Shown here piece by piece: positions 908-31,882 of a stretch of 64,000 nt of DNA (its first letter is position 1; every line of letters begins with the position of its first letter). The stretch lies in NCBI RefSeq assembly GCF_056712565.1, contig NZ_CM160072.1, one strand, 5' to 3'. Position numbers and translations under genes: made by a program. Under the pieces are notes generated by a model, which worked only from the letters and a program-made list of their open reading frames with translations, was not told where the DNA came from and ran no database searches.

Positions 908-2845
908 GTGGAAAAAGCCAAACACGTTACCTGGCGGCTGTTGGCTGTCGGTGTCTGTCTGCTGACGGTCAGCAGCGTGGCGCGAGCCGACTCACTGGAT
1001 GAGCAGCGTAGTCGTTACGCGCAAATCAAGCAGGCCTGGGATAATCGACAAATGGATGTGGTCGAACAAATGATGCCTGGACTGAAAGATTACCCACTTT
1101 ATCCCTACCTGGAATACCGCCAGATCACTGATGACCTGATGAATCAACCGGCGGTGACGGTCACTAACTTTGTTCGCGCTAACCCCACGCTTCCTCCCGC
1201 TCGCACGCTGCAATCTCGTTTCGTCAATGAACTGGCGCGGCGTGAAGACTGGCGTGGCTTGTTAGCCTTTAGCCCGGAAAAGCCCGGAACTACCGAAGCG
1301 CAATGTAATTACTACTATGCGAAATGGAACACCGGGCAGAGTGAAGAAGCCTGGCAAGGGGCGAAAGAGCTGTGGCTAACCGGCAAGAGCCAGCCTAACG
1401 CCTGTGACAAGTTATTTAGCGTCTGGCGTGCGTCAGGTAAACAAGATCCGCTGGCGTATTTAGAGCGTATCCGTCTGGCGATGAAAGCGGGTAACACCGG
1501 CCTGGTAACAGTGCTGGCAGGGCAGATGCCTGCCGATTACCAGACTATCGCTTCGGCAATCATTTCACTGGCGAACAACCCTAATACGGTACTGACCTTC
1601 GCGCGTACAACCGGCGCGACCGATTTTACCCGTCAAATGGCGGCGGTGGCGTTTGCCAGTGTGGCGCGGCAGGATGCTGAAAATGCACGGCTGATGATCC
1701 CGTCGCTTGCTCAGGCACAGCAGCTTAATGAAGATCAGATTCAGGAGCTGCGCGATATTGTCGCATGGCGTTTGATGGGCAACGATGTCACCGACGAGCA
1801 GGCGAAATGGCGCGATGACGCGATTATGCGTTCGCAATCTACTTCGCTTATTGAACGCCGTGTGCGAATGGCGCTTGGCACCGGCGATCGTCGCGGCCTG
1901 AATACCTGGCTGGCGCGTCTGCCTATGGAAGCGAAAGAGAAAGATGAATGGCGTTACTGGCAGGCGGATTTATTGCTGGAACGCGGACGTGAAGCTGAAG
2001 CAAAAGAGATTTTGCATCAACTCATGCAACAGCGTGGTTTCTACCCGATGGTTGCTGCACAACGCATCGGCGAAGAGTATGAGCTGAAGATTGATAAAGC
2101 GCCGCAGAATGTTGACAGCGCCCTGACTCAGGGGCCGGAGATGGCGCGCGTGCGCGAGTTGATGTACTGGAATCTCGATAACACCGCGCGTAGCGAGTGG
2201 GCCAATCTGGTGAAGAGCAAGTCAAAAACAGAGCAGGCTCAACTGGCTCGGTATGCTTTCAATAACCAATGGTGGGATCTTAGCGTTCAGGCAACGATCG
2301 CCGGGAAGCTGTGGGATCATCTGGAAGAGCGATTCCCGCTGGCTTACAACGATCTTTTCAAACGCTACACCAGTGGTAAGGAGATCCCGCAAAGCTATGC
2401 GATGGCGATTGCCCGTCAGGAGAGTGCCTGGAATCCGAAAGTGAAATCACCGGTAGGGGCCAGCGGCCTGATGCAGATTATGCCTGGTACCGCGACCCAT
2501 ACGGTGAAGATGTTCTCTATTCCCGGTTATAGCAGCCCTGGGCAATTGCTGGATCCGGAAACAAACATCAACATTGGCACCAGTTACCTGCAATATGTTT
2601 ATCAGCAGTTTGGCAATAACCGTATTTTCTCCTCAGCAGCTTATAACGCCGGGCCAGGGCGGGTGCGAACCTGGCTTGGCAACAGCGCAGGGCGTATCGA
2701 CGCAGTGGCATTTGTCGAGAGTATTCCATTCTCCGAGACGCGCGGTTATGTGAAAAACGTGCTGGCTTATGACGCTTACTACCGCTATTTCATGGGGGAT
2801 AAACCGACGTTGATGAGCGCCACGGAATGGGGACGTCGTTACTGA
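908..2845 (+). CDS. slt: Soluble lytic murein transglycosylase Slt70
   Basis: 645-aa ORF with GTG start, signal-peptide-like N-terminus and C-terminal lysozyme-like motifs (ESAWNP, GLMQIMPGTA, AYNAGPGRV); matches Slt from memory. Confidence 0.95.
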   Translation: MEKAKHVTWRLLAVGVCLLTVSSVARADSLDEQRSRYAQIKQAWDNRQMDVVEQMMPGLKDYPLYPYLEYRQITDDLMNQPAVTVTNFVRANPTLPPARTLQSRFVNELARREDWRGLLAFSPEKPGTTEAQCNYYYAKWNTGQSEEAWQGAKELWLTGKSQPNACDKLFSVWRASGKQDPLAYLERIRLAMKAGNTGLVTVLAGQMPADYQTIASAIISLANNPNTVLTFARTTGATDFTRQMAAVAFASVARQDAENARLMIPSLAQAQQLNEDQIQELRDIVAWRLMGNDVTDEQAKWRDDAIMRSQSTSLIERRVRMALGTGDRRGLNTWLARLPMEAKEKDEWRYWQADLLLERGREAEAKEILHQLMQQRGFYPMVAAQRIGEEYELKIDKAPQNVDSALTQGPEMARVRELMYWNLDNTARSEWANLVKSKSKTEQAQLARYAFNNQWWDLSVQATIAGKLWDHLEERFPLAYNDLFKRYTSGKEIPQSYAMAIARQESAWNPKVKSPVGASGLMQIMPGTATHTVKMFSIPGYSSPGQLLDPETNINIGTSYLQYVYQQFGNNRIFSSAAYNAGPGRVRTWLGNSAGRIDAVAFVESIPFSETRGYVKNVLAYDAYYRYFMGDKPTLMSATEWGRRY

Positions 2846-2866
2846 TCCACACGTTTATGATATGCT

Positions 2867-2890
2867 ATCGTACTCTTTAGCGAGTACAAC
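2867..2890 (+). promoter_or_regulatory. Trp repressor operator (trpR autoregulation) overlapping the trpR promoter
   Basis: Inverted repeat GTACTC-tttagc-GAGTAC about 45 bp upstream of trpR, resembling the TrpR operator half-sites. Confidence 0.65.
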
Positions 2891-2919
2891 CGGGGGAGGC
2901 ATTTTGCTTCCCCCGCTAA

Positions 2920-3261
<342 letters not shown>

Positions 3262-3265
3262 TTTT

Positions 3266-3873
<608 letters not shown>

Positions 3874-3912
3874 TCAGAAAATTAACGTTACAGCAGTATA
3901 CGGAAAAAAAGC

Positions 3913-4560
3913 ATGTTACAGGTATACCTAGTCCGCCACGGTGAAACGCAGTGGAACGCCGAGCGACGTATTCAGGGCCAGTCTGACAGCCCGCTGACCG
4001 CCAAAGGTGAGCAACAGGCGATGCAGGTGGCAACCCGTGCCAAAGAGCTTGGCATTACGCATATCATCAGTAGCGATTTAGGACGGACCCGGCGCACGGC
4101 GGAAATCATCGCCCAGGCCTGCGGCTGTGACATCATCTTTGATTCTCGCCTGCGTGAATTAAATATGGGTGTACTGGAAACAAGAAATATCGATTCACTC
4201 ACCGAAGAAGAAGAGAACTGGCGTCGGCAGCTGGTCAATGGCACCGTTGACGGGCGTATTCCTGAAGGCGAGTCAATGCAGGAGCTCAGCGATCGCGTTA
4301 ATGCGGCACTGGAATCTTGCCGGGACTTACCGCAGGGAAGCCGACCGCTACTGGTGAGCCATGGTATTGCACTGGGATGCCTGGTGAGTACGATTCTCGG
4401 ATTACCAGCATGGGCAGAGCGCCGCTTACGTCTGCGTAACTGTTCTATTTCGCGCGTGGATTATCAGGAAAGCTTGTGGCTGGCGTCTGGCTGGGTGGTT
4501 GAAACCGCAGGGGACATCTCGCATCTGGACGCCCCTGCATTAGATGAGCTGCAGCGTTAA
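3913..4560 (+). CDS. gpmB: Probable phosphoglycerate mutase GpmB (histidine phosphatase family)
   Basis: 215-aa ORF MLQVYLVRHGETQWNAERRIQG... carrying the RHGE catalytic motif; matches GpmB/YtjC. Confidence 0.92.
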   Translation: MLQVYLVRHGETQWNAERRIQGQSDSPLTAKGEQQAMQVATRAKELGITHIISSDLGRTRRTAEIIAQACGCDIIFDSRLRELNMGVLETRNIDSLTEEEENWRRQLVNGTVDGRIPEGESMQELSDRVNAALESCRDLPQGSRPLLVSHGIALGCLVSTILGLPAWAERRLRLRNCSISRVDYQESLWLASGWVVETAGDISHLDAPALDELQR

Positions 4561-14567: not shown

Positions 14568-15500
14568 ATGGTTAAAGTTTATGCCCCGGCTTCCAGTGCC
14601 AATATGAGCGTCGGGTTTGATGTGCTCGGGGCGGCGGTGACACCTGTTGATGGTGCATTGCTCGGAGATGTAGTCACGGTTGAGGCGGCAGAGACATTCA
14701 GTCTCAACAACCTCGGACGCTTTGCCGATAAGCTGCCGTCAGAGCCACGGGAAAATATCGTTTATCAGTGCTGGGAGCGTTTTTGCCAGGAGCTTGGCAA
14801 GCAAATTCCAGTGGCGATGACTCTGGAAAAGAATATGCCGATCGGTTCGGGCTTAGGCTCCAGCGCCTGTTCAGTGGTCGCGGCGCTGATGGCGATGAAT
14901 GAACACTGCGGCAAGCCGCTTAATGACACTCGTTTGCTGGCTTTGATGGGCGAGTTGGAAGGGCGTATCTCCGGCAGCATTCATTACGACAACGTGGCAC
15001 CGTGTTTTCTTGGTGGTATGCAGTTGATGATTGAAGAAAACGACATCATCAGTCAGCAAGTGCCAGGGTTTGATGAGTGGCTGTGGGTGCTGGCGTATCC
15101 GGGGATTAAAGTCTCGACGGCAGAAGCCAGGGCTATTTTACCGGCGCAGTATCGCCGCCAGGATTGCATTGCGCACGGGCGACATCTGGCAGGCTTCATT
15201 CACGCCTGCTATTCCCGTCAGCCTGAGCTTGCCGCGAAGCTGATGAAAGATGTTATCGCTGAACCCTACCGTGAACGGTTACTGCCAGGCTTCCGGCAGG
15301 CGCGGCAGGCGGTTGCGGAAATCGGCGCGGTAGCGAGCGGTATCTCCGGCTCCGGCCCGACTTTGTTCGCTCTGTGTGACAAGCCGGATACCGCCCAGCG
15401 CGTTGCCGACTGGTTGGGTAAAAACTACCTGCAAAATCAGGAAGGTTTTGTTCATATTTGCCGGCTGGATACGGCGGGCGCACGAGTACTGGAAAACTAA
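14568..15500 (+). CDS. thrB: Homoserine kinase
   Basis: 310-aa [27 protein letters not shown]... with GHMP kinase motif [10 protein letters not shown]. Confidence 0.97.
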
Positions 15501-16787
15501 ATGAAACTCTACAATCTGAAAGATCACAATGAGCAGGTCAGCTTTGCGCAAGCCGTAACCCAGGGGTTGGGCAAAAATCAGGGGCTGTTTTTCCCGCACG
15601 ACCTGCCGGAATTCAGCCTGACTGAAATTGATGAGATGCTGAAGCTGGATTTTGTCACCCGCAGTGCGAAGATCCTCTCGGCGTTTATTGGTGATGAAAT
15701 CCCGCAGGAAATCCTGGAAGAGCGCGTACGCGCGGCGTTTGCCTTCCCGGCTCCGGTCGCCAATGTTGAAAGCGATGTCGGTTGTCTGGAATTGTTCCAC
15801 GGGCCAACGCTGGCATTTAAAGATTTCGGCGGTCGCTTTATGGCACAAATACTGACCCATATTGCGGGCGATAAGCCAGTGACCATTCTGACCGCGACAT
15901 CCGGTGATACTGGAGCGGCAGTGGCTCATGCTTTCTACGGTTTACCGAATGTGAAAGTGGTTATCCTCTATCCACGAGGCAAAATCAGTCCACTGCAAGA
16001 AAAACTGTTCTGTACATTGGGCGGCAATATCGAAACTGTTGCCATCGACGGCGATTTCGATGCCTGTCAGGCGCTGGTGAAGCAGGCGTTTGATGATGAA
16101 GAACTGAAAGTGGCGCTGGGGCTAAACTCTGCTAACTCCATTAACATCAGCCGTTTGCTGGCGCAGATTTGCTACTACTTTGAAGCTGTTGCGCAGCTGC
16201 CGCAGGAAGCGCGCAACCAGCTGGTTGTCTCGGTGCCAAGCGGAAACTTCGGCGATTTGACGGCGGGTCTGCTGGCGAAGTCACTCGGTCTGCCGGTGAA
16301 ACGTTTTATTGCTGCGACCAACGTGAACGATACCGTGCCACGTTTCCTGCACGACGGTCAGTGGTCACCCAAAGCGACTCAGGCGACGTTATCCAATGCG
16401 ATGGATGTTAGCCAGCCAAACAACTGGCCGCGTGTGGAAGAGTTGTTCCGCCGCAAAATCTGGCAACTGAAAGAGCTGGGGTATGCAGCCGTGGATGATG
16501 AAACCACGCAACAGACAATGCGTGAGTTAAAAGAACTGGGCTATACCTCGGAGCCGCACGCTGCCGTAGCTTATCGTGCGCTGCGTGACCAGTTGAATCC
16601 AGGCGAATATGGCTTGTTCCTCGGCACCGCGCATCCGGCGAAATTTAAAGAGAGCGTGGAAGCGATTCTCGGTGAAACGTTGGATCTGCCAAAAGAGCTG
16701 GCAGAACGTGCTGATTTACCCTTGCTTTCGCATAACCTGCCCGCCGATTTTGCTGCGTTGCGTAAATTGATGATGAATCATCAGTAA
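15501..16787 (+). CDS. thrC: Threonine synthase
   Basis: 428-aa ORF MKLYNLKDHNEQVSFAQAVTQGLG... with PLP-lysine region FHGPTLAFKDFGGRF. Confidence 0.97.
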   Translation: MKLYNLKDHNEQVSFAQAVTQGLGKNQGLFFPHDLPEFSLTEIDEMLKLDFVTRSAKILSAFIGDEIPQEILEERVRAAFAFPAPVANVESDVGCLELFHGPTLAFKDFGGRFMAQILTHIAGDKPVTILTATSGDTGAAVAHAFYGLPNVKVVILYPRGKISPLQEKLFCTLGGNIETVAIDGDFDACQALVKQAFDDEELKVALGLNSANSINISRLLAQICYYFEAVAQLPQEARNQLVVSVPSGNFGDLTAGLLAKSLGLPVKRFIAATNVNDTVPRFLHDGQWSPKATQATLSNAMDVSQPNNWPRVEELFRRKIWQLKELGYAAVDDETTQQTMRELKELGYTSEPHAAVAYRALRDQLNPGEYGLFLGTAHPAKFKESVEAILGETLDLPKELAERADLPLLSHNLPADFAALRKLMMNHQ

Positions 16788-16808
16788 CATCTATTCATTA
16801 TCTCAATC

Positions 16809-16844
16809 AGGCCGGGTTTGCTTTTATGCAGCCCGGCTTTTTTA
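16809..16844 (+). terminator. Probable thr operon terminator
   Basis: GCCGGG...CCCGGC stem followed by TTTTTT about 25 bp after the thrC stop. Confidence 0.55.
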
Positions 16845-17000
16845 TGAAGAAAATATGGAGAAAAACGACAGGGAAAAAGGAGAAATTCTCAATAAATGCG
16901 GTAAATTAGAGATTAGGATTGCGGAGAATAACAACTGCCGTTCTCATCGCGTAATCTCCGGATATCGACCCATAACGGGCAATGATAAAAGGAGTAACCT

Positions 17001-17297
17001 GTGAAAAAGATGCAATCTATCGTACTCGCACTTTCCCTGGTTCTGGTCGCTCCCATGGCAGCGCAGGCTGCGGAAATTACGCTAGTCCCGTCAGTAAAAT
17101 TACAGATAGGCGATCGTGATAATCGTGGCTATTACTGGGATGGCGGTCACTGGCGCGACCACGGCTGGTGGAAACAACATTATGAATGGCGAGGCAATCG
17201 CTGGCACCCATATGGACCGCCGCCATCGCCGCGCCATAACAAGCACAATGATCATCGTGGCGATCATCGTCCGGAGCCGGACAAACATCATCGCTAA
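17001..17297 (+). CDS. yaaX: His/Trp-rich small secreted protein YaaX (DUF2502)
   Basis: 98-aa ORF with GTG start, signal peptide ([23 protein letters not shown]) and a His/Trp/Arg-rich mature region. Confidence 0.85.
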
Positions 17298-25986: not shown

Positions 25987-27117
25987 ATGGCTAAGCAAGA
26001 TTATTACGAGATTTTAGGCGTTTCCAAAACAGCGGAAGAGCGTGAAATCAAAAAGGCCTACAAACGCCTGGCCATGAAATACCACCCGGACCGTAACCAG
26101 GGTGACAAAGAGGCCGAGGCGAAATTTAAAGAGATCAAGGAAGCTTATGAAGTTCTGACCGACTCGCAAAAACGTGCGGCATACGATCAGTATGGTCATG
26201 CTGCGTTTGAGCAAGGCGGCATGGGCGGCGGCGGTTTTGGCGGCGGCGCAGACTTCAGCGATATTTTTGGTGACGTTTTCGGCGATATTTTTGGCGGCGG
26301 ACGTGGTCGTCAACGTGCGGCGCGCGGTGCTGATTTACGCTATAACATGGAGCTCACCCTCGAAGAAGCTGTACGTGGCGTGACCAAAGAGATCCGCATT
26401 CCGACTCTGGAAGAGTGTGACGTTTGCCACGGTAGCGGTGCAAAACCAGGTACACAGCCGCAGACCTGTCCGACCTGTCATGGTTCTGGCCAGGTGCAGA
26501 TGCGCCAGGGTTTCTTTGCCGTGCAGCAGACCTGTCCACACTGTCAGGGCCGCGGTACGCTGATCAAAGATCCGTGCAACAAATGTCATGGTCATGGTCG
26601 TGTTGAGCGCAGCAAAACGCTGTCCGTTAAAATCCCGGCAGGGGTGGACACTGGAGACCGCATCCGTCTTGCGGGCGAAGGTGAAGCGGGTGAACACGGC
26701 GCACCGGCAGGCGATCTGTACGTTCAGGTTCAGGTTAAACAGCACCCGATTTTCGAGCGTGAAGGCAACAACCTGTATTGCGAAGTCCCGATCAACTTCG
26801 CTATGGCGGCGCTGGGTGGTGAAATCGAAGTACCGACCCTTGATGGTCGCGTCAAACTGAAAGTGCCTGGCGAAACCCAGACCGGTAAGCTGTTCCGTAT
26901 GCGCGGTAAAGGCGTCAAGTCTGTCCGCGGTGGCGCACAGGGTGATTTGCTATGCCGCGTTGTTGTCGAAACACCGGTAGGTTTGAACGAGAAGCAGAAA
27001 CAGCTGCTGCAAGAGCTGCAAGAAAGCTTTGGTGGCCCAACCGGCGAGCACAACAGCCCGCGTTCAAAGAGCTTCTTTGATGGCGTGAAGAAGTTTTTTG
27101 ACGACCTGACTCGCTAA
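25987..27117 (+). CDS. dnaJ: Co-chaperone DnaJ (Hsp40)
   Basis: 376-aa protein [12 protein letters not shown]... with J-domain HPD, Gly/Phe-rich linker and four CxxCxGxG zinc-finger repeats; start set at ATG 25987. Confidence 0.98.
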
Positions 27118-27221
27118 CCTCCCCAAAAGCCTGCCCGTGGGCAGGCCAGGGTAAAAACCAGGGTGCGTTGAAGATATGCGAGCACCTGTAAAGTGGCGGG
27201 GATCACTCCCCGCCGTTGCTC

Positions 27222-27374
27222 TTACTCGGATTCGTAAGCCGTGAAAACAGCAACCTCCGTCTGGCCAGTTCGGATGTGAACCTCACAGAGGTCTTTTCTC
27301 GTTACCAGCGCCGCCACTACGGCGGTGATACAGATGACGATCAGGGCGACAATCATCGCCTTATGCTGCTTCAT
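27222..27374 (-). CDS. hokC: Type I toxin HokC (Hok/Gef family membrane toxin)
   Basis: 50-codon frame MKQHKAMIVALIVICITAVVAALVTRKDLCEVHIRTGQTEVAVFTAYESE inside the 80-aa ORF. Confidence 0.88.
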   Translation of the reverse strand: MKQHKAMIVALIVICITAVVAALVTRKDLCEVHIRTGQTEVAVFTAYESE

Positions 27375-27431
27375 TGCTCTCTTCTCCTTGACCTTACGGT
27401 CAGTAAGAGGCACTCTACATGTGTTCTGCAT
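27222..27431 (-). CDS. mokC: MokC, overlapping reading frame that modulates hokC translation
   Basis: Same frame as hokC starting at the upstream Met (MQNTCRVPLTDRKVKEKRA...), as in characterised hok/mok loci. Confidence 0.6.
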   Translation of the reverse strand: MQNTCRVPLTDRKVKEKRAMKQHKAMIVALIVICITAVVAALVTRKDLCEVHIRTGQTEVAVFTAYESE

Positions 27432-27477
27432 ATAGGGGGCCTCGGGTTGATGGTAAAATATCACTCGGGGCTTTTCT
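27423..27477 (+). ncRNA. sokC: Putative SokC antisense RNA (approximate position)
   Basis: Placed only by analogy to hok/sok loci, where Sok is antisense to the mok start region; no promoter or terminator was convincingly identified in the sequence. Confidence 0.3.
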
Positions 27478-27985
27478 CTATCTGCCGTTCAGCTAATGCC
27501 TGAGACAGACAGCCTCAAGCACCCGCCGCTATTATATCGCTCTCTTTAACCCATTCTGTTTTATCGATTCTAATCCTGAAGACGCCTCGCATTTTTGCGT
27601 AATCAATCTTTAGTACATTGTTTATTTTAACTCTTATGTGCGTTTTCATTTACAAAAGTTGAGATTATGAACAAGAGGTTTAAGTTATGCCTGAATGGTG
27701 AGTTATTACTGGAGAAAGTAATAGAAGATACAAAATATTCTTGTACAGAATTGAATTTTCTTTTTGTGAGGAAAAATGTTTATAAATCAATGAGTGATAT
27801 TTAAAATCGACACACTTTTTGAAACACGATACCTCCACACCCGGGGGTAAAAGTAATCTGCGATCTCCATCACGCTTTGCCATTCACCTTTAAATATACT
27901 TTCTGAGTCGTTCTTAATCAAAATGAATTATCTGATGTATTGATTTCTATGGAACCATAAAAAAAATGAATGGAGAGCATATTAT

Positions 27986-28747
27986 ATGTCTGCCAAAAGA
28001 CGGCTTCTTATTGCGTGTGCCCTGACAACGATTTTCTATCACCTTCCTGCATATTCTTCATTAGAATATAAAGGTTCCTTTGGCTCAATAAATGCAGGTT
28101 ATGCTGACTGGAATAGTGGCTTCATTAACACTCATCGTGGTGAAGTATGGAAAGTGACTGCAGACTTTGGTGTGAATTTTAAAGAAGCCGAGTTTTACTC
28201 ATTTTATGAAAGCAATGTGCTTAACCATGCCGTAGCGGGGCGTAATCATACCGTTTCTGCTATGACACATGTCAGACTCTTTGACTCCAATATGACTTTC
28301 TTTGGCAAGATCTATGGTCAATGGGATAACTCATGGGGTGACGATCTTGATATGTTTTATGGTTTGGGCTACCTCGGCTGGAATGGTTCATGGGGGTTTT
28401 TTAAACCGTATATTGGATTACATAATCAATCTGGAGACTACGTCTCAGCCAAATATGGACAAACAAATGGCTGGAATGGTTATGTTGTTGGCTGGACAGC
28501 AGTATTACCTTTTACGTTATTTGACGAAAAATTTGTTTTATCTAACTGGAATGAAATAGAACTGGACAGAAATGATGCCTATGCGGAACAACAATTTGGT
28601 CGGAATGGGCTAAATGGCGGTTTAACAGTAGCCTGGAAGTTCTATCCTCGCTGGAAAGCCAGTGTGACGTGGCGTTATTTCGATAATAAGTTGGGCTACG
28701 ATGGTTTTGGCGATCAAATGATTTATATGCTTGGTTATGATTTCTAA
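27986..28747 (+). CDS. Tsx-family outer-membrane beta-barrel channel (nucleoside-specific-channel-like porin)
   Basis: 253-aa ORF with signal peptide, Trp/Tyr/Gly-rich composition, and C-terminus ...MLGYDF ending in Phe; local similarity to Tsx (LEYxxF near N-terminus, GYxF C-terminus). Good SD (GGAGAG) upstream. Confidence 0.7.
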   Translation: MSAKRRLLIACALTTIFYHLPAYSSLEYKGSFGSINAGYADWNSGFINTHRGEVWKVTADFGVNFKEAEFYSFYESNVLNHAVAGRNHTVSAMTHVRLFDSNMTFFGKIYGQWDNSWGDDLDMFYGLGYLGWNGSWGFFKPYIGLHNQSGDYVSAKYGQTNGWNGYVVGWTAVLPFTLFDEKFVLSNWNEIELDRNDAYAEQQFGRNGLNGGLTVAWKFYPRWKASVTWRYFDNKLGYDGFGDQMIYMLGYDF

Positions 28748-28766
28748 TTTTCATCAGGGAATAATT

Positions 28767-30260
28767 ATGCAGAAAACATTAATGGCCAGTTTGATCGGCC
28801 TTGCAGTTTGCACAGGGAATGCTTTTAATCCAGTCGTAGCTGCCGAGACTAAACAACCCAATTTAGTCATCATTATGGCGGATGATTTAGGCTATGGTGA
28901 TTTAGCAACATATGGACATCAGATCGTTAAAACACCCAATATTGACAGGCTTGCCCAGGAGGGCGTCAAATTTACTGACTACTATGCACCAGCTCCCTTA
29001 AGTTCTCCTTCGCGGGCGGGGTTATTAACGGGGCGGATGCCATTTCGTACCGGCATACGTTCATGGATCCCAACGGGAAAAGATGTGGCATTAGGGCGTA
29101 ATGAACTCACGATTGCTAATCTACTCAAAGCGCAAGGGTATGACACGGCCATGATGGGTAAGCTGCATCTGAATGCAGGCGGCGATCGCACCGATCAGCC
29201 GCAGGCAAAAGATATGGGCTTTGATTACTCACTGGTTAATACGGCGGGTTTTGTTACCGACGCCACGCTGGATAACGCTAAAGAACGCCCGCGTTATGGC
29301 ATGGTTTACCCGACAGGCTGGCTACGTAACGGGCAACCCACTCCACGAGCCGATAAAATGAGCGGTGAGTATGTCAGTTCGGAAGTCGTCAACTGGCTGG
29401 ATAACAAAAAGGACAGCAAGCCTTTCTTCCTCTATGTTGCTTTTACCGAAGTGCATAGCCCCCTGGCTTCGCCCAAAAAATACCTCGACATGTACTCACA
29501 ATATATGAGCGCGTATCAGAAGCAGCATCCTGATTTATTTTATGGCGACTGGGCAGACAAACCCTGGCGTGGTGTGGGGGAATATTATGCCAATATCAGC
29601 TATCTGGATGCACAGGTTGGAAAAGTGCTGGATAAAATCAAAGCGATGGGTGAAGAAGATAACACAATCGTTATTTTTACCAGTGATAACGGTCCGGTAA
29701 CGCGTGAAGCGCGCAAAGTGTATGAGCTGAATTTGGCAGGGGAAACGGATGGATTACGCGGTCGCAAGGATAACCTTTGGGAAGGCGGAATTCGTGTTCC
29801 AGCCATTATTAAATATGGTAAACATCTACCACAGGGAATGGTTTCAGATACACCCGTTTATGGTCTGGACTGGATGCCTACTTTAGCGAAAATGATGAAC
29901 TTCAAATTACCTACAGACCGTACTTTCGATGGTGAATCGCTGGTTCCTGTTCTTGAGCAAAAAGCATTGAAACGCGAAAAGCCATTAATTTTCGGGATTG
30001 ATATGCCATTCCAGGATGATCCAACCGATGAATGGGCGATCCGTGATGGTGACTGGAAGATGATTATCGATCGCAATAATAAACCGAAATATCTCTACAA
30101 TCTGAAATCTGATCGTTATGAAACACTTAATCTGATCGGTAAAAAACCAGATATTGAAAAACAGATGTATGGTAAGTTTTTAAAATATAAAACTGATATT
30201 GATAATGATTCTCTAATGAAAGCCAGAGGTGATAAACCAGAAGCGGTGACCTGGGGCTAA
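28767..30260 (+). CDS. Periplasmic sulfatase, Ser-type (formylglycine precursor is Ser)
   Basis: 497-aa protein with signal peptide (MQKTLMASLIGLAVCTG...), metal-binding IIMADDLGYGDL, and sulfatase signature PLSSPSRAGLLTG (S-x-P-x-R). Start set at the internal ATG with SD, 19 bp after the porin stop. Confidence 0.85.
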   Translation: MQKTLMASLIGLAVCTGNAFNPVVAAETKQPNLVIIMADDLGYGDLATYGHQIVKTPNIDRLAQEGVKFTDYYAPAPLSSPSRAGLLTGRMPFRTGIRSWIPTGKDVALGRNELTIANLLKAQGYDTAMMGKLHLNAGGDRTDQPQAKDMGFDYSLVNTAGFVTDATLDNAKERPRYGMVYPTGWLRNGQPTPRADKMSGEYVSSEVVNWLDNKKDSKPFFLYVAFTEVHSPLASPKKYLDMYSQYMSAYQKQHPDLFYGDWADKPWRGVGEYYANISYLDAQVGKVLDKIKAMGEEDNTIVIFTSDNGPVTREARKVYELNLAGETDGLRGRKDNLWEGGIRVPAIIKYGKHLPQGMVSDTPVYGLDWMPTLAKMMNFKLPTDRTFDGESLVPVLEQKALKREKPLIFGIDMPFQDDPTDEWAIRDGDWKMIIDRNNKPKYLYNLKSDRYETLNLIGKKPDIEKQMYGKFLKYKTDIDNDSLMKARGDKPEAVTWG

Positions 30261-30308
30261 CCTGATAATCATAATAAATGTAATGTATGCCATTTAGGGC
30301 TATGCCCG

Positions 30309-30345
30309 CCTGATTCAGTGCTACGCATTGAATCAGGTTCTTTTC
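30309..30345 (+). terminator. Rho-independent terminator after the porin-sulfatase pair
   Basis: CCTGATTCA-gtgctacgcat-TGAATCAGG perfect 9-bp stem followed by TTCTTTTCG. Confidence 0.65.
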
Positions 30346-30382
30346 GCGTTGAACAATATCAAGATACGGCTATTCGCAGGGA

Positions 30383-31648
30383 GTGGATATGTTTACCAAC
30401 GTAAATGTTGATTGTTGCAAAACACCAGGATGTAAAAACCTGGGGTTGCTGAATAGCCAGGATTATGTCGCACAGGGTAAAAATATTTTATGCCGTGAAT
30501 GTGGTTACTTGTTTCCAGTGATATCTGAACAGTCGCTTAATATTTATCGTAATATTGTGAATCACTCCTGGAGAGGTTTGATTTGCCAATGTTCAACTTG
30601 CGGAGGCACGTCCCTCAAAAAATATGGATATTCTGCACAAGGCCAGAGAAGAATGTATTGCCATCATTGTGAGAAAACATTTATCACTCTGGAACATGTA
30701 ATTACCACACCACGAGGAGCCCTGTTAGCATTGATGATTGAGCAAGGGGAGGCACTTGCGGATATCAGAAAGTCATTACTTCTTAACAGCACTGGACTTA
30801 GCCGTGAACTGTTAAAATTAGCGCGTGAAGCAAACTATAAAGAAAGTCGACAGTGTTTCCCAGCTTCTGATATTACCCTGAGTACCCGCGCTTTTCGCGT
30901 CAAGTATAATGGTAGCAATAACTCTCTTTATGCTCTTGTTACCGCAGAAGAACAAAGCGGCAGGGTGGTTGCCATCTCAACCAATTACTCCCCATCTGCC
31001 GTAGAGCAACATTATCAATACACATCGAACTATGAAGAGCGTATGTCTCCAGGGACGCTGGCACATCATGTCCAGCGCAAAGAGTTACTTACTATGCGGC
31101 GGGATACCTTGTTTGATATTGATTACGGCCCGGCAGTTTTACATCAAAACGATCCGGGAATGTTGGTAAAACCGGTTCTTCCGGCATATCGTCATTTTGA
31201 ACTGGTCAGAATACTGACCGATGAGCATTCCAACAACGTTCAGCATTACCTTGATCACGAATGCTTTATATTGGGCGGCTGCCTGATGGCTAATTTGCAG
31301 CATATTCATCAAGGTCGCTGCCATATTTCCTTTGTCAAAGAGCGCGGTGTGGCACCCGCCACCATTGATTTTCCACCGCGATTATTCCTTAGTGGTGGGG
31401 TACGAAATAATGTCTGGCGTGCATTTTCTAACCGCAATTATTCAATGGCTGTATGCAATCTCACTGGCAGTAAGAAAGTCCGCGAGATGCGGCATGCAAC
31501 ATTGAACAGTGCGACGCGTTTTATCCACTTTGTGGAGAACCATCCTTTCCTTATATCATTGAACCGAATGTCTCCTGCGAATGTCGTTTCTACATTAGAT
31601 ATCCTCAAACATCTGTGGAATAAAAAACTAGAGCATGGAACAATTTAA
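30383..31648 (+). CDS. Uncharacterised protein with two N-terminal InsA-like Cys4 zinc ribbons
   Basis: 421-aa ORF with SD (GGGAG); two C-x(n)-C...C-x2-C motifs (CCKTPGC...CRECG and CQCSTCG...CHHCEKTF) resembling the IS1 InsA zinc ribbon; remainder not recognised. Confidence 0.6.
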   Translation: MDMFTNVNVDCCKTPGCKNLGLLNSQDYVAQGKNILCRECGYLFPVISEQSLNIYRNIVNHSWRGLICQCSTCGGTSLKKYGYSAQGQRRMYCHHCEKTFITLEHVITTPRGALLALMIEQGEALADIRKSLLLNSTGLSRELLKLAREANYKESRQCFPASDITLSTRAFRVKYNGSNNSLYALVTAEEQSGRVVAISTNYSPSAVEQHYQYTSNYEERMSPGTLAHHVQRKELLTMRRDTLFDIDYGPAVLHQNDPGMLVKPVLPAYRHFELVRILTDEHSNNVQHYLDHECFILGGCLMANLQHIHQGRCHISFVKERGVAPATIDFPPRLFLSGGVRNNVWRAFSNRNYSMAVCNLTGSKKVREMRHATLNSATRFIHFVENHPFLISLNRMSPANVVSTLDILKHLWNKKLEHGTI

Positions 31649-31882
31649 TTATTACTTTTCCGAATAATTTCTTCAGAAATCTTGACATTAGACTATGATT
31701 AATGGGGTTTAAGGTCATCAGCCGCCGCTTTCGGGCATCAAAAACTCATCTCTCGCTGATGGCGCAATTCTTTTAATAGATCGTAAAAAGCGAGCTATTC
31801 CTACACTATAATCTGATTTTAACGATGATTCGTGCGGGGTAAAATCGTGAAAACGATCTATTCACCTGAAGAGAAATAAAAA

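Follow-up and report, generated by a model that had tools for sequence, protein, structure and literature searches.

The window analysed here, a stretch of 64,000 nucleotides of contig NZ_CM160072.1 (assembly GCF_056712565.1), very probably carries a chromosomal hokC/mokC/sokC type I toxin-antitoxin locus that is complete and free of interruptions; its most natural interpretation is as the ancestral arrangement of the locus that bears IS186 in Escherichia coli K-12. The functional unit spans approximately 27121-27560 and is wider than the interval in which the locus was first flagged (27222-27480): both reading frames and sokC lie inside that interval, which leaves out tac and the promoter on the 5' side (27513-27560) and the hairpin, fbi box and terminator on the 3' side (27121-27215). 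Over the 701 nt of 27050-27750 the window agrees at every base with the E. coli type strain ATCC 11775 (DSM 30083), in which a type I toxin is annotated at the hokC position and the gene order runs dnaK, dnaJ, toxin, OmpK/Tsx-like porin, sulfatase, hypothetical protein, nhaA and nhaR.

The toxin gene and its enclosing frame

The hokC gene occupies 27222-27374 of the minus strand, as 50 codons and a stop, and was assigned as a Hok/Gef membrane toxin from the list of open reading frames, from Pfam and from its identity with K-12. Its product, MKQHKAMIVALIVICITAVVAALVTRKDLCEVHIRTGQTEVAVFTAYESE, matches the Pfam HOK_GEF family (PF01848) over the whole profile with 85.5 bits (E 1.8e-24; the cut-off is 22 bits), which places it among the toxins of about 50 residues for which an N-terminal transmembrane helix is a family trait. 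The coding sequence is identical to that of K-12 hokC, and the HokC protein likewise.

Around hokC, in the same frame and with a common stop codon, lies mokC, whose 69 codons at 27222-27431 (minus) were delimited from the reading frame list and from the K-12 annotation, where mokC is given at 16751-16960 and again shares its stop codon with hokC. The start adopted is the ATG of the K-12 type at 27431-27429; the reading frame list extends the frame further, to a GTG at 27464. A Shine-Dalgarno sequence (SD), GAGG, is found 9 nt upstream of the ATG, so that the overlapping frame has a ribosome-binding signal of its own. MokC differs from its K-12 counterpart in a single residue, Leu2 to Gln (L2Q), resulting from a SNP at 27427. 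By analogy with the R1 model, translation of hokC would be coupled to that of mokC. The earlier note's description of a complete 50-codon hokC nested in mokC is thus borne out by the frame at 27222-27374 inside the mokC frame that extends to 27431, and by the Pfam score of 85.5 bits.

The codon for Tyr47 of hokC, UAC at 27234-27236 (minus), is followed by G, creating a UACG motif within GGCUUACGAAUCC that is identical in K-12. The hokC mRNA, like that of hokB, is described in a preprint as undergoing A-to-I editing by TadA, by which tyrosine becomes cysteine and toxicity rises (bioRxiv 10.1101/2025.08.07.668861). A further open reading frame of 95 codons on the plus strand (27216-27503), antisense to hokC, was set aside because it simply mirrors a conserved gene on the other strand; it is unannotated in both K-12 and ATCC 11775.

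Signals of the hokC mRNA

The 5' leader of the hokC mRNA, at 27372-27524 (minus), matches the Rfam sok/hok-leader model (RF01794) over positions 1-157 of 157, with 116.9 bits (E 2.9e-27) against a gathering score of 59, and the start of the model places the 5' end of the mRNA at 27524 (minus). Counting from there on the minus strand, the leader contains in turn tac (nt 1-12, 27524-27513, sequence GGGUGCUUGAGG), ucb (nt 52-58, 27473-27467), the mokC SD GAGG (nt 82-85, 27443-27440), dcb (nt 114-118, 27411-27407) and the hokC SD AAGGAG (about nt 136-141). A putative hokC promoter can be read from the sequence at 27531-27560 (minus), consisting of a perfect -10 box, TATAAT, at 27536-27531, which lies 7 nt upstream of the predicted 5' end, and a poor -35 at about 27554-27560. 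The one SNP relative to K-12 in this promoter, at 27556, falls in the weak -35 region.

At the other end of the gene, 7 bp past the hokC stop, begins a GC-rich hairpin (27196-27215, minus), GGCGGGGA-GUGA-UCCCCGCC in the RNA and GGCGGGGA-TCAC-TCCCCGCC as DNA, whose stem is perfect and which is intact in the window. By analogy with R1 this would be the 3' stem-loop that marks the end of the processed hokC mRNA. The fold-back inhibition (fbi) box, UUCAACGCACCC(U), follows at 27161-27173 (minus), 48 nt past the hokC stop; it was located from both the minimum free energy (MFE) and the centroid fold of the 404-nt transcript described below, and its duplex with tac has an energy of -18.3 kcal/mol. 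Finally, a terminator-like hairpin, GCCUGCCC-ACG-GGCAGGC followed by UUUUGGGG, abuts the dnaJ stop at 27121-27147 (minus) and is likely to form the 3' end of the full-length mRNA.

A scan of 27050-27700 for consensus sigma-70 promoters and terminators called neither the hokC or sokC promoter nor the terminator hairpins. The hokC promoter escapes because its -35 is weak and the terminator hairpin because it is followed by only four U, so that the assignments of promoter and terminator rest on position and homology. What the scan did report on the plus strand, a CAGACA/TATTAT pair at 27506-27535, matches no known element, and the same is true of a weak hairpin inside the hokC coding sequence; both are within the number expected from shuffled sequence and were put down to chance. 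A match to the Pseudomonas rpsL leader at 27128-27254 was similarly discounted as chance: its 19.5 bits (E 0.67) lie below the gathering score of 70, and it merely overlaps the two GC hairpins.

The antisense RNA

The antisense gene sokC was placed at about 27423-27481 on the plus strand, its coordinates being carried over through the alignment from K-12, where it is annotated as an sRNA at 16952-17010. SokC is predicted to leave its 5' end unpaired, as a tail over the mokC start codon, and to form a hairpin at approximately 27438-27472, followed by a U-tract, UUUUCU. It is complementary to nt 44-102 of the mRNA, a region that takes in ucb, the mokC SD (nt 82-85) and the mokC AUG (nt 94-96). 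Two SNPs, at 27427 and 27437, separate it from K-12 sokC (SokC nt 5 and nt 15); they both lie in the overlap of sokC with mokC and, because SokC is cis-encoded, leave its complementarity to the mRNA unaffected.

The candidate promoter for sokC (27388-27416, plus) was again read from the sequence and comprises a -35 box TTGACC at 27388-27393, a 17-bp spacer and a -10 box CACTCT at 27411-27416. Since the strict consensus scan omitted this pair of boxes, its assignment is inferred from the position relative to the K-12 sokC start. The earlier note had named the absence of any Sok promoter as a finding that would count against its reading; in the event the promoter region is base-for-base identical to that of K-12, where sokC is an annotated sRNA, and the equivalent region of the window has the TTGACC/CACTCT boxes, the predicted hairpin and the U-tract.

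Predicted folds and a proposed switch

In the predicted fold of a 404-nt transcript running from 27524 to 27121, nt 1-12 pair with nt 352-364 (27173-27161) through 12 bp and one bulge in both the MFE and the centroid structures, closing tac on fbi over long range in silico. The MFE is -173 kcal/mol, compared with -132.9 +/- 5.5 kcal/mol for dinucleotide shuffles (z = -7.3), and in this closed fold ucb (here nt 54-59) is predicted to pair with the mokC SD region. A 'closed' tac/fbi form is known for the hok mRNA of R1 (PMC9841398). When the transcript is shortened to 350 or 335 nt, tac is predicted to shift to ucb (nt 52-58). In the 335-nt form the SD then pairs with dcb (nt 114-118), giving the 'open' form, while in the 350-nt form it is paired locally instead. 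The two alternative sets of pairings, tac/fbi with ucb/SD and tac/ucb with SD/dcb, are therefore predicted for the 404-nt and 335-nt forms respectively, but not uniformly across truncations. In particular, at 345 nt, with the transcript cut at 27180, the mRNA 5' end pairs with a weak, G-U-rich alternative partner, GAGCACCUG (plus strand), at 27180-27188; the length at which the predicted fold switches is thus somewhat blurred. This pairing may represent a fold-back intermediate during 3' trimming or may be an artefact of prediction.

The transcript SNPs at 27427 and 27437 both fall at unpaired positions of the predicted fold. Mutation of the fold-back or translational activation elements was the other finding that, according to the earlier note, would tell against a functional module; tac, fbi, ucb, dcb and the mokC SD are all present, with the expected alternative pairings in silico, and none is mutated.

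By homology with hok/sok of plasmid R1, the following course of events can be proposed. The promoter at about 27531-27560, presumably weak given its perfect -10 but poor -35, would yield a full-length mRNA of some 400 nt, from 27524 to about 27121, which would be closed by the predicted tac/fbi and ucb/mokC SD pairings and hence untranslatable and Sok-resistant. Slow trimming of the 3' end as far as the GC-rich hairpin would leave about 330-335 nt and remove fbi; the trimmed mRNA would refold, as it does in silico, into the open form with tac/ucb and SD/dcb pairing, and mokC, hence hokC, would become translatable. SokC, made from the stronger-looking internal promoter and complementary to nt 44-102, would bind this open form and direct it to RNase III. 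The toxin itself, HokC, is a membrane-depolarising peptide of 50 residues. Where IS186 has inserted into the hairpin loop, as in K-12-type genomes, the mRNA loses fbi and the hairpin alike; in the predicted fold of a K-12 transcript reading into IS186 the tac/fbi pairing is absent and the RNA is in the open form, in which it would be expected to stay. The IS-free hokC of strain ECOR24 is credited with a transcript of about 330 nt (PMC3562002), a size that fits a processed end just after the GC hairpin, as modelled here.

Comparison with plasmid-borne relatives

The order of elements in the window – promoter, tac, ucb, mok SD, dcb, hok, GC hairpin, fbi and terminator – is that of hok/mok/sok of plasmid R1, of flm of F and of other plasmid loci, with which the locus also shares the position of its putative antisense gene, over the mok start, and the predicted alternative closed and open folds. 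HokC is approximately 40% identical to plasmid Hok proteins. Among plasmid hok loci chosen by protein similarity, those designated L008 (IncY), L009 (IncFII) and L011 (Vibrio) each have a GC hairpin right after the stop, fbi 47-55 nt past the stop and then a terminator, and in each the full-length transcript is predicted to fold with its fbi paired to nt 1-10. The sequences of tac and fbi differ among loci yet stay complementary, that is, they covary: tac and fbi are GGGUGCUUGAGG and CUUCAACGCACCC in the window, GGCGCUUGAGGC and GCCUGAAGCGCC in the IncFII locus, and GGGUGCUCUUGGU and GCCAACGAGCACCC in the Vibrio locus.

A matrix of cross-pairing between tac elements and 3' untranslated regions gave a mean of -18.7 kcal/mol for cognate pairs compared with -15.3 kcal/mol, several loci having nearly the same tac; because this matrix is not clean, the comparison relies on the four loci with 5'-3' pairing in the full-length MFE structure. 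Elsewhere, the best tac duplex of the flm locus (L007) lies far downstream, the 5' end of L010 is uncertain (Rfam score of 34 bits), and L006 is cut by IS26 and has no leader. The annotated mok frame of the flm locus is offset from hok, whereas mokC of the window is in frame with hokC.

An empty IS186 site

No IS186 intervenes between dnaJ and hokC in the window, as the earlier note had observed. The dnaJ stop codon ends at 27117 and the 104 bp that separate it from the hokC stop at 27222 are unique sequence, and the terminal repeat of IS186 finds no match, with up to three mismatches allowed, anywhere in the 64-kb window. The interval instead holds an undisrupted IS186 target, GGCGGGGATCACTCCCCGCC. 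The note's statement that in K-12 an IS186 copy sits downstream of hokC is likewise correct: in the MG1655 record IS186A is annotated between dnaJ and hokC at 15387-16731. When placed from its terminal repeats, the element measures 1339 bp and is flanked by a 10-bp duplication, GGATCACTCC. Its insertion point is the loop of the GC-rich hairpin, 20 bp past the hokC stop in K-12, and the duplicated bases correspond to 27201-27210 of the window. Deleting IS186 together with one of the two duplicated 10-bp stretches makes K-12 align to the window free of gaps. Since the hairpin is intact in the window, the latter contains the exact empty site.

The same alignment shows how little else has changed. 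Over the 303 nt from the hokC stop to the mRNA 5' end there are just two differences from K-12, the SNPs already mentioned at 27427 (T for A) and 27437 (G for A), with three further changes in the stretch that separates fbi from the terminator. The neighbouring dnaJ gene shows 2.0% divergence from K-12. The K-12 genes hokC (gef), mokC and sokC (sof), b4412, b0018 and b4413 respectively, are listed in its annotation together with IS186A, and have the same tac, ucb, dcb, hokC SD, sokC promoter, 3' hairpin and fbi sequences as the window. What distinguishes K-12 is that IS186A parts the 3' arm of the hairpin, fbi and the terminator from the gene, along with the L2Q difference in MokC and the two SokC SNPs.

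On its other flank the alignment with K-12 ends at about 27598, well upstream of the hokC promoter. Between that promoter and nhaA the window has an insert of some 4 kb (approximately 27598-31880) whose three genes are absent from K-12. Their products are a channel protein of the Tsx/OmpK type (27986-28747; 52.7 bits to Pfam Channel_Tsx), a sulfatase (about 28731-30260; 201.8 bits to Pfam Sulfatase) and a 421-residue Cys-rich protein without a Pfam match (30383-31648). The left boundary of the insert is common to around 1241 of 5426 complete E. coli genomes.

Frequency of the empty site and recurrence of the insertion

A 221-bp probe across the insertion site has a one-piece match in 3814 of the 5426 complete E. 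coli genomes (70%). IS-free hokC is the majority state in E. coli and, most simply, the ancestral one. The body of the locus (27222-27540) is found almost everywhere, in 5417 genomes, being contiguous over at least 80% of its length in 5128 and at least 99% identical in 4763. The junction of IS186 with hokC seen in K-12 was detected in about 841 genomes and that of the opposite orientation in about 953, figures that are approximate since together they exceed the 1611 genomes without a continuous junction and are probably inflated by look-alikes. One such look-alike (H73, NZ_AP027404.1, around 1659933-1660054) matches the IS186-end/hok junction query with 90% identity but lies beside another Hok/Gef gene elsewhere in the chromosome. 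It would fit the IS186 copy that adjoins hokE in K-12, and suggests that IS186 is drawn to the GC hairpin downstream of the hok stop in several paralogues.

IS186 is found at the identical base, with the identical 10-bp duplication GGATCACTCC, in both orientations and in different flanking backgrounds. Copies at the hokC hairpin were located in the loci L001 (1891-3229), L003 (1185-2523) and L005 (1140-2478); in the latter two the element is in the opposite orientation, and the flank is of the ATCC 11775 type in L003 and of the K-12 type in L005. The combination of both orientations with different flanks shows the hokC 3' hairpin to be a recurrent target of IS186, struck independently more than once. 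In L005 (strain 005008) the locus has been struck twice, an IS150 (2753-4122) lying in the hokC leader/sokC region in addition to the IS186 downstream. In another locus, L004 (strain MLI104K2), only the hokC-proximal IS186 repeat is found, that on the dnaJ side being absent, and a 'hypothetical protein' coding sequence is annotated across an insert of around 700 bp.

Genes of the hok family adjoin insertion hot spots, and adaptive disruption has been proposed for them generally (preprint 10.1101/527788). We think it improbable, but worth stating, that the recurrent IS186 hits reflect, beyond a target preference, recurrent selection in favour of separating hokC from fbi and from the stabilising hairpin. 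Such a separation would neutralise or rewire a chromosomal killer module, while IS-free strains would keep a reservoir of stable mRNA with a real physiological role.

Is the IS-free locus functional?

The IS-free hokC of ECOR24 and its relation to the IS186-bearing copy of K-12 were reportedly studied by Pedersen and Gerdes in 1999. The ECOR24 locus reportedly resembles that of the window in its site by dnaJ, its set of genes, the absence of IS186 and an fbi contiguous with the mRNA. It is stated in a later preprint, with reference to Pedersen and Gerdes (1999), that ECOR24 hokC gave neither post-segregational killing nor activation by rifampicin, and that the same was true of hokA of E. coli C and hokB of K-12 (bioRxiv 10.1101/2025.08.07.668861). 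Post-segregational killing, a phenotype of the plasmid members, would on that account be lacking in the chromosomal IS-free hokC of ECOR24; belonging to the sequence family does not depend on it. The ECOR24 result argues against R1-like behaviour in vivo. The suggestion that the window, being free of IS186, may carry a functional module therefore holds in part: hokC, mokC and the regulatory elements are intact in sequence, but the IS-free condition is simply that of most E. coli, and the IS-free ECOR24 form is reported to lack killing.

The accompanying idea, that IS186 inactivates the K-12 locus, also needs qualification. The element does part fbi and the hairpin arm from the gene, but inactivation is contested by the finding that knock-down of sokC is strongly deleterious in a K-12 CRISPRi screen, the more so in poor media (bioRxiv 10.1101/2020.03.04.975888). 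Probably, IS186 alters the regulation of hokC rather than switching it on or off. A fuller version of this reading, in which both forms are active but have mRNAs of different stability and depend on SokC to different degrees, so that the present strain is in no way special, is a serious possibility, falling somewhat short of even. It is favoured by the predicted state of the K-12 transcript, which would be locked open, translatable and accessible to Sok; by the strong fitness defect on sokC knock-down, growing as nutrients become limiting; and by the report that K-12 gef is transcribed, terminates inside the IS and is regulated by an antisense RNA (PMC3562002). On the other hand, a dCas9 block at sokC covers the hokC leader as well, which means that the CRISPRi phenotype cannot be ascribed purely to loss of the antitoxin; the result comes from a preprint screen without follow-up, and the sources consulted contain no head-to-head comparison of the IS-free and IS-bearing forms.

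Another reading, which we hold possible but on the doubtful side, is that the locus is intact in sequence yet phenotypically silent, the mRNA being transcribed and processed without HokC ever reaching toxic levels; the IS-free state would then be immaterial. The behaviour reported for ECOR24 hokC, E. coli C hokA and K-12 hokB points this way, as do the very poor -35 of the hokC promoter and the tolerance of IS186 in the locus by about 30% of genomes. Against silence, the transcript body is at least 99% identical in 4763 of 5417 genomes and differs from K-12 at only 2 of 303 nt, compared with 2.0% in dnaJ, which suggests constraint. The deleterious effect of sokC knock-down even in K-12 (bioRxiv 10.1101/2020.03.04.975888) also speaks against it, as does the toxicity of the HokC coding sequence on expression (bioRxiv 10.1101/2025.08.07.668861). 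Moreover, without Sok one chromosomal copy of R1 hok suffices to kill (PMC9841398), so copy number alone is not limiting. There remains virtually no chance that the reading frame and its surrounding signals are accidental features of an intergenic spacer, a notion for which nothing speaks save the small size of the frame and which is already ruled out by the Pfam (E 1.8e-24) and Rfam (E 2.9e-27) matches, the stability of the fold (z -7.3) and the presence of the locus body in 5417 of 5426 genomes.

Implications

The IS-free hokC locus is already known, is routinely annotated and is the common form in E. coli; it is K-12 that is the atypical reference for this gene. Physiological work on chromosomal hok, whether on persistence, phage exclusion or editing of the toxin RNA, would therefore be better carried out in an IS-free strain such as this one, since it is there that the full switch between closed and open mRNA is predicted to be intact.
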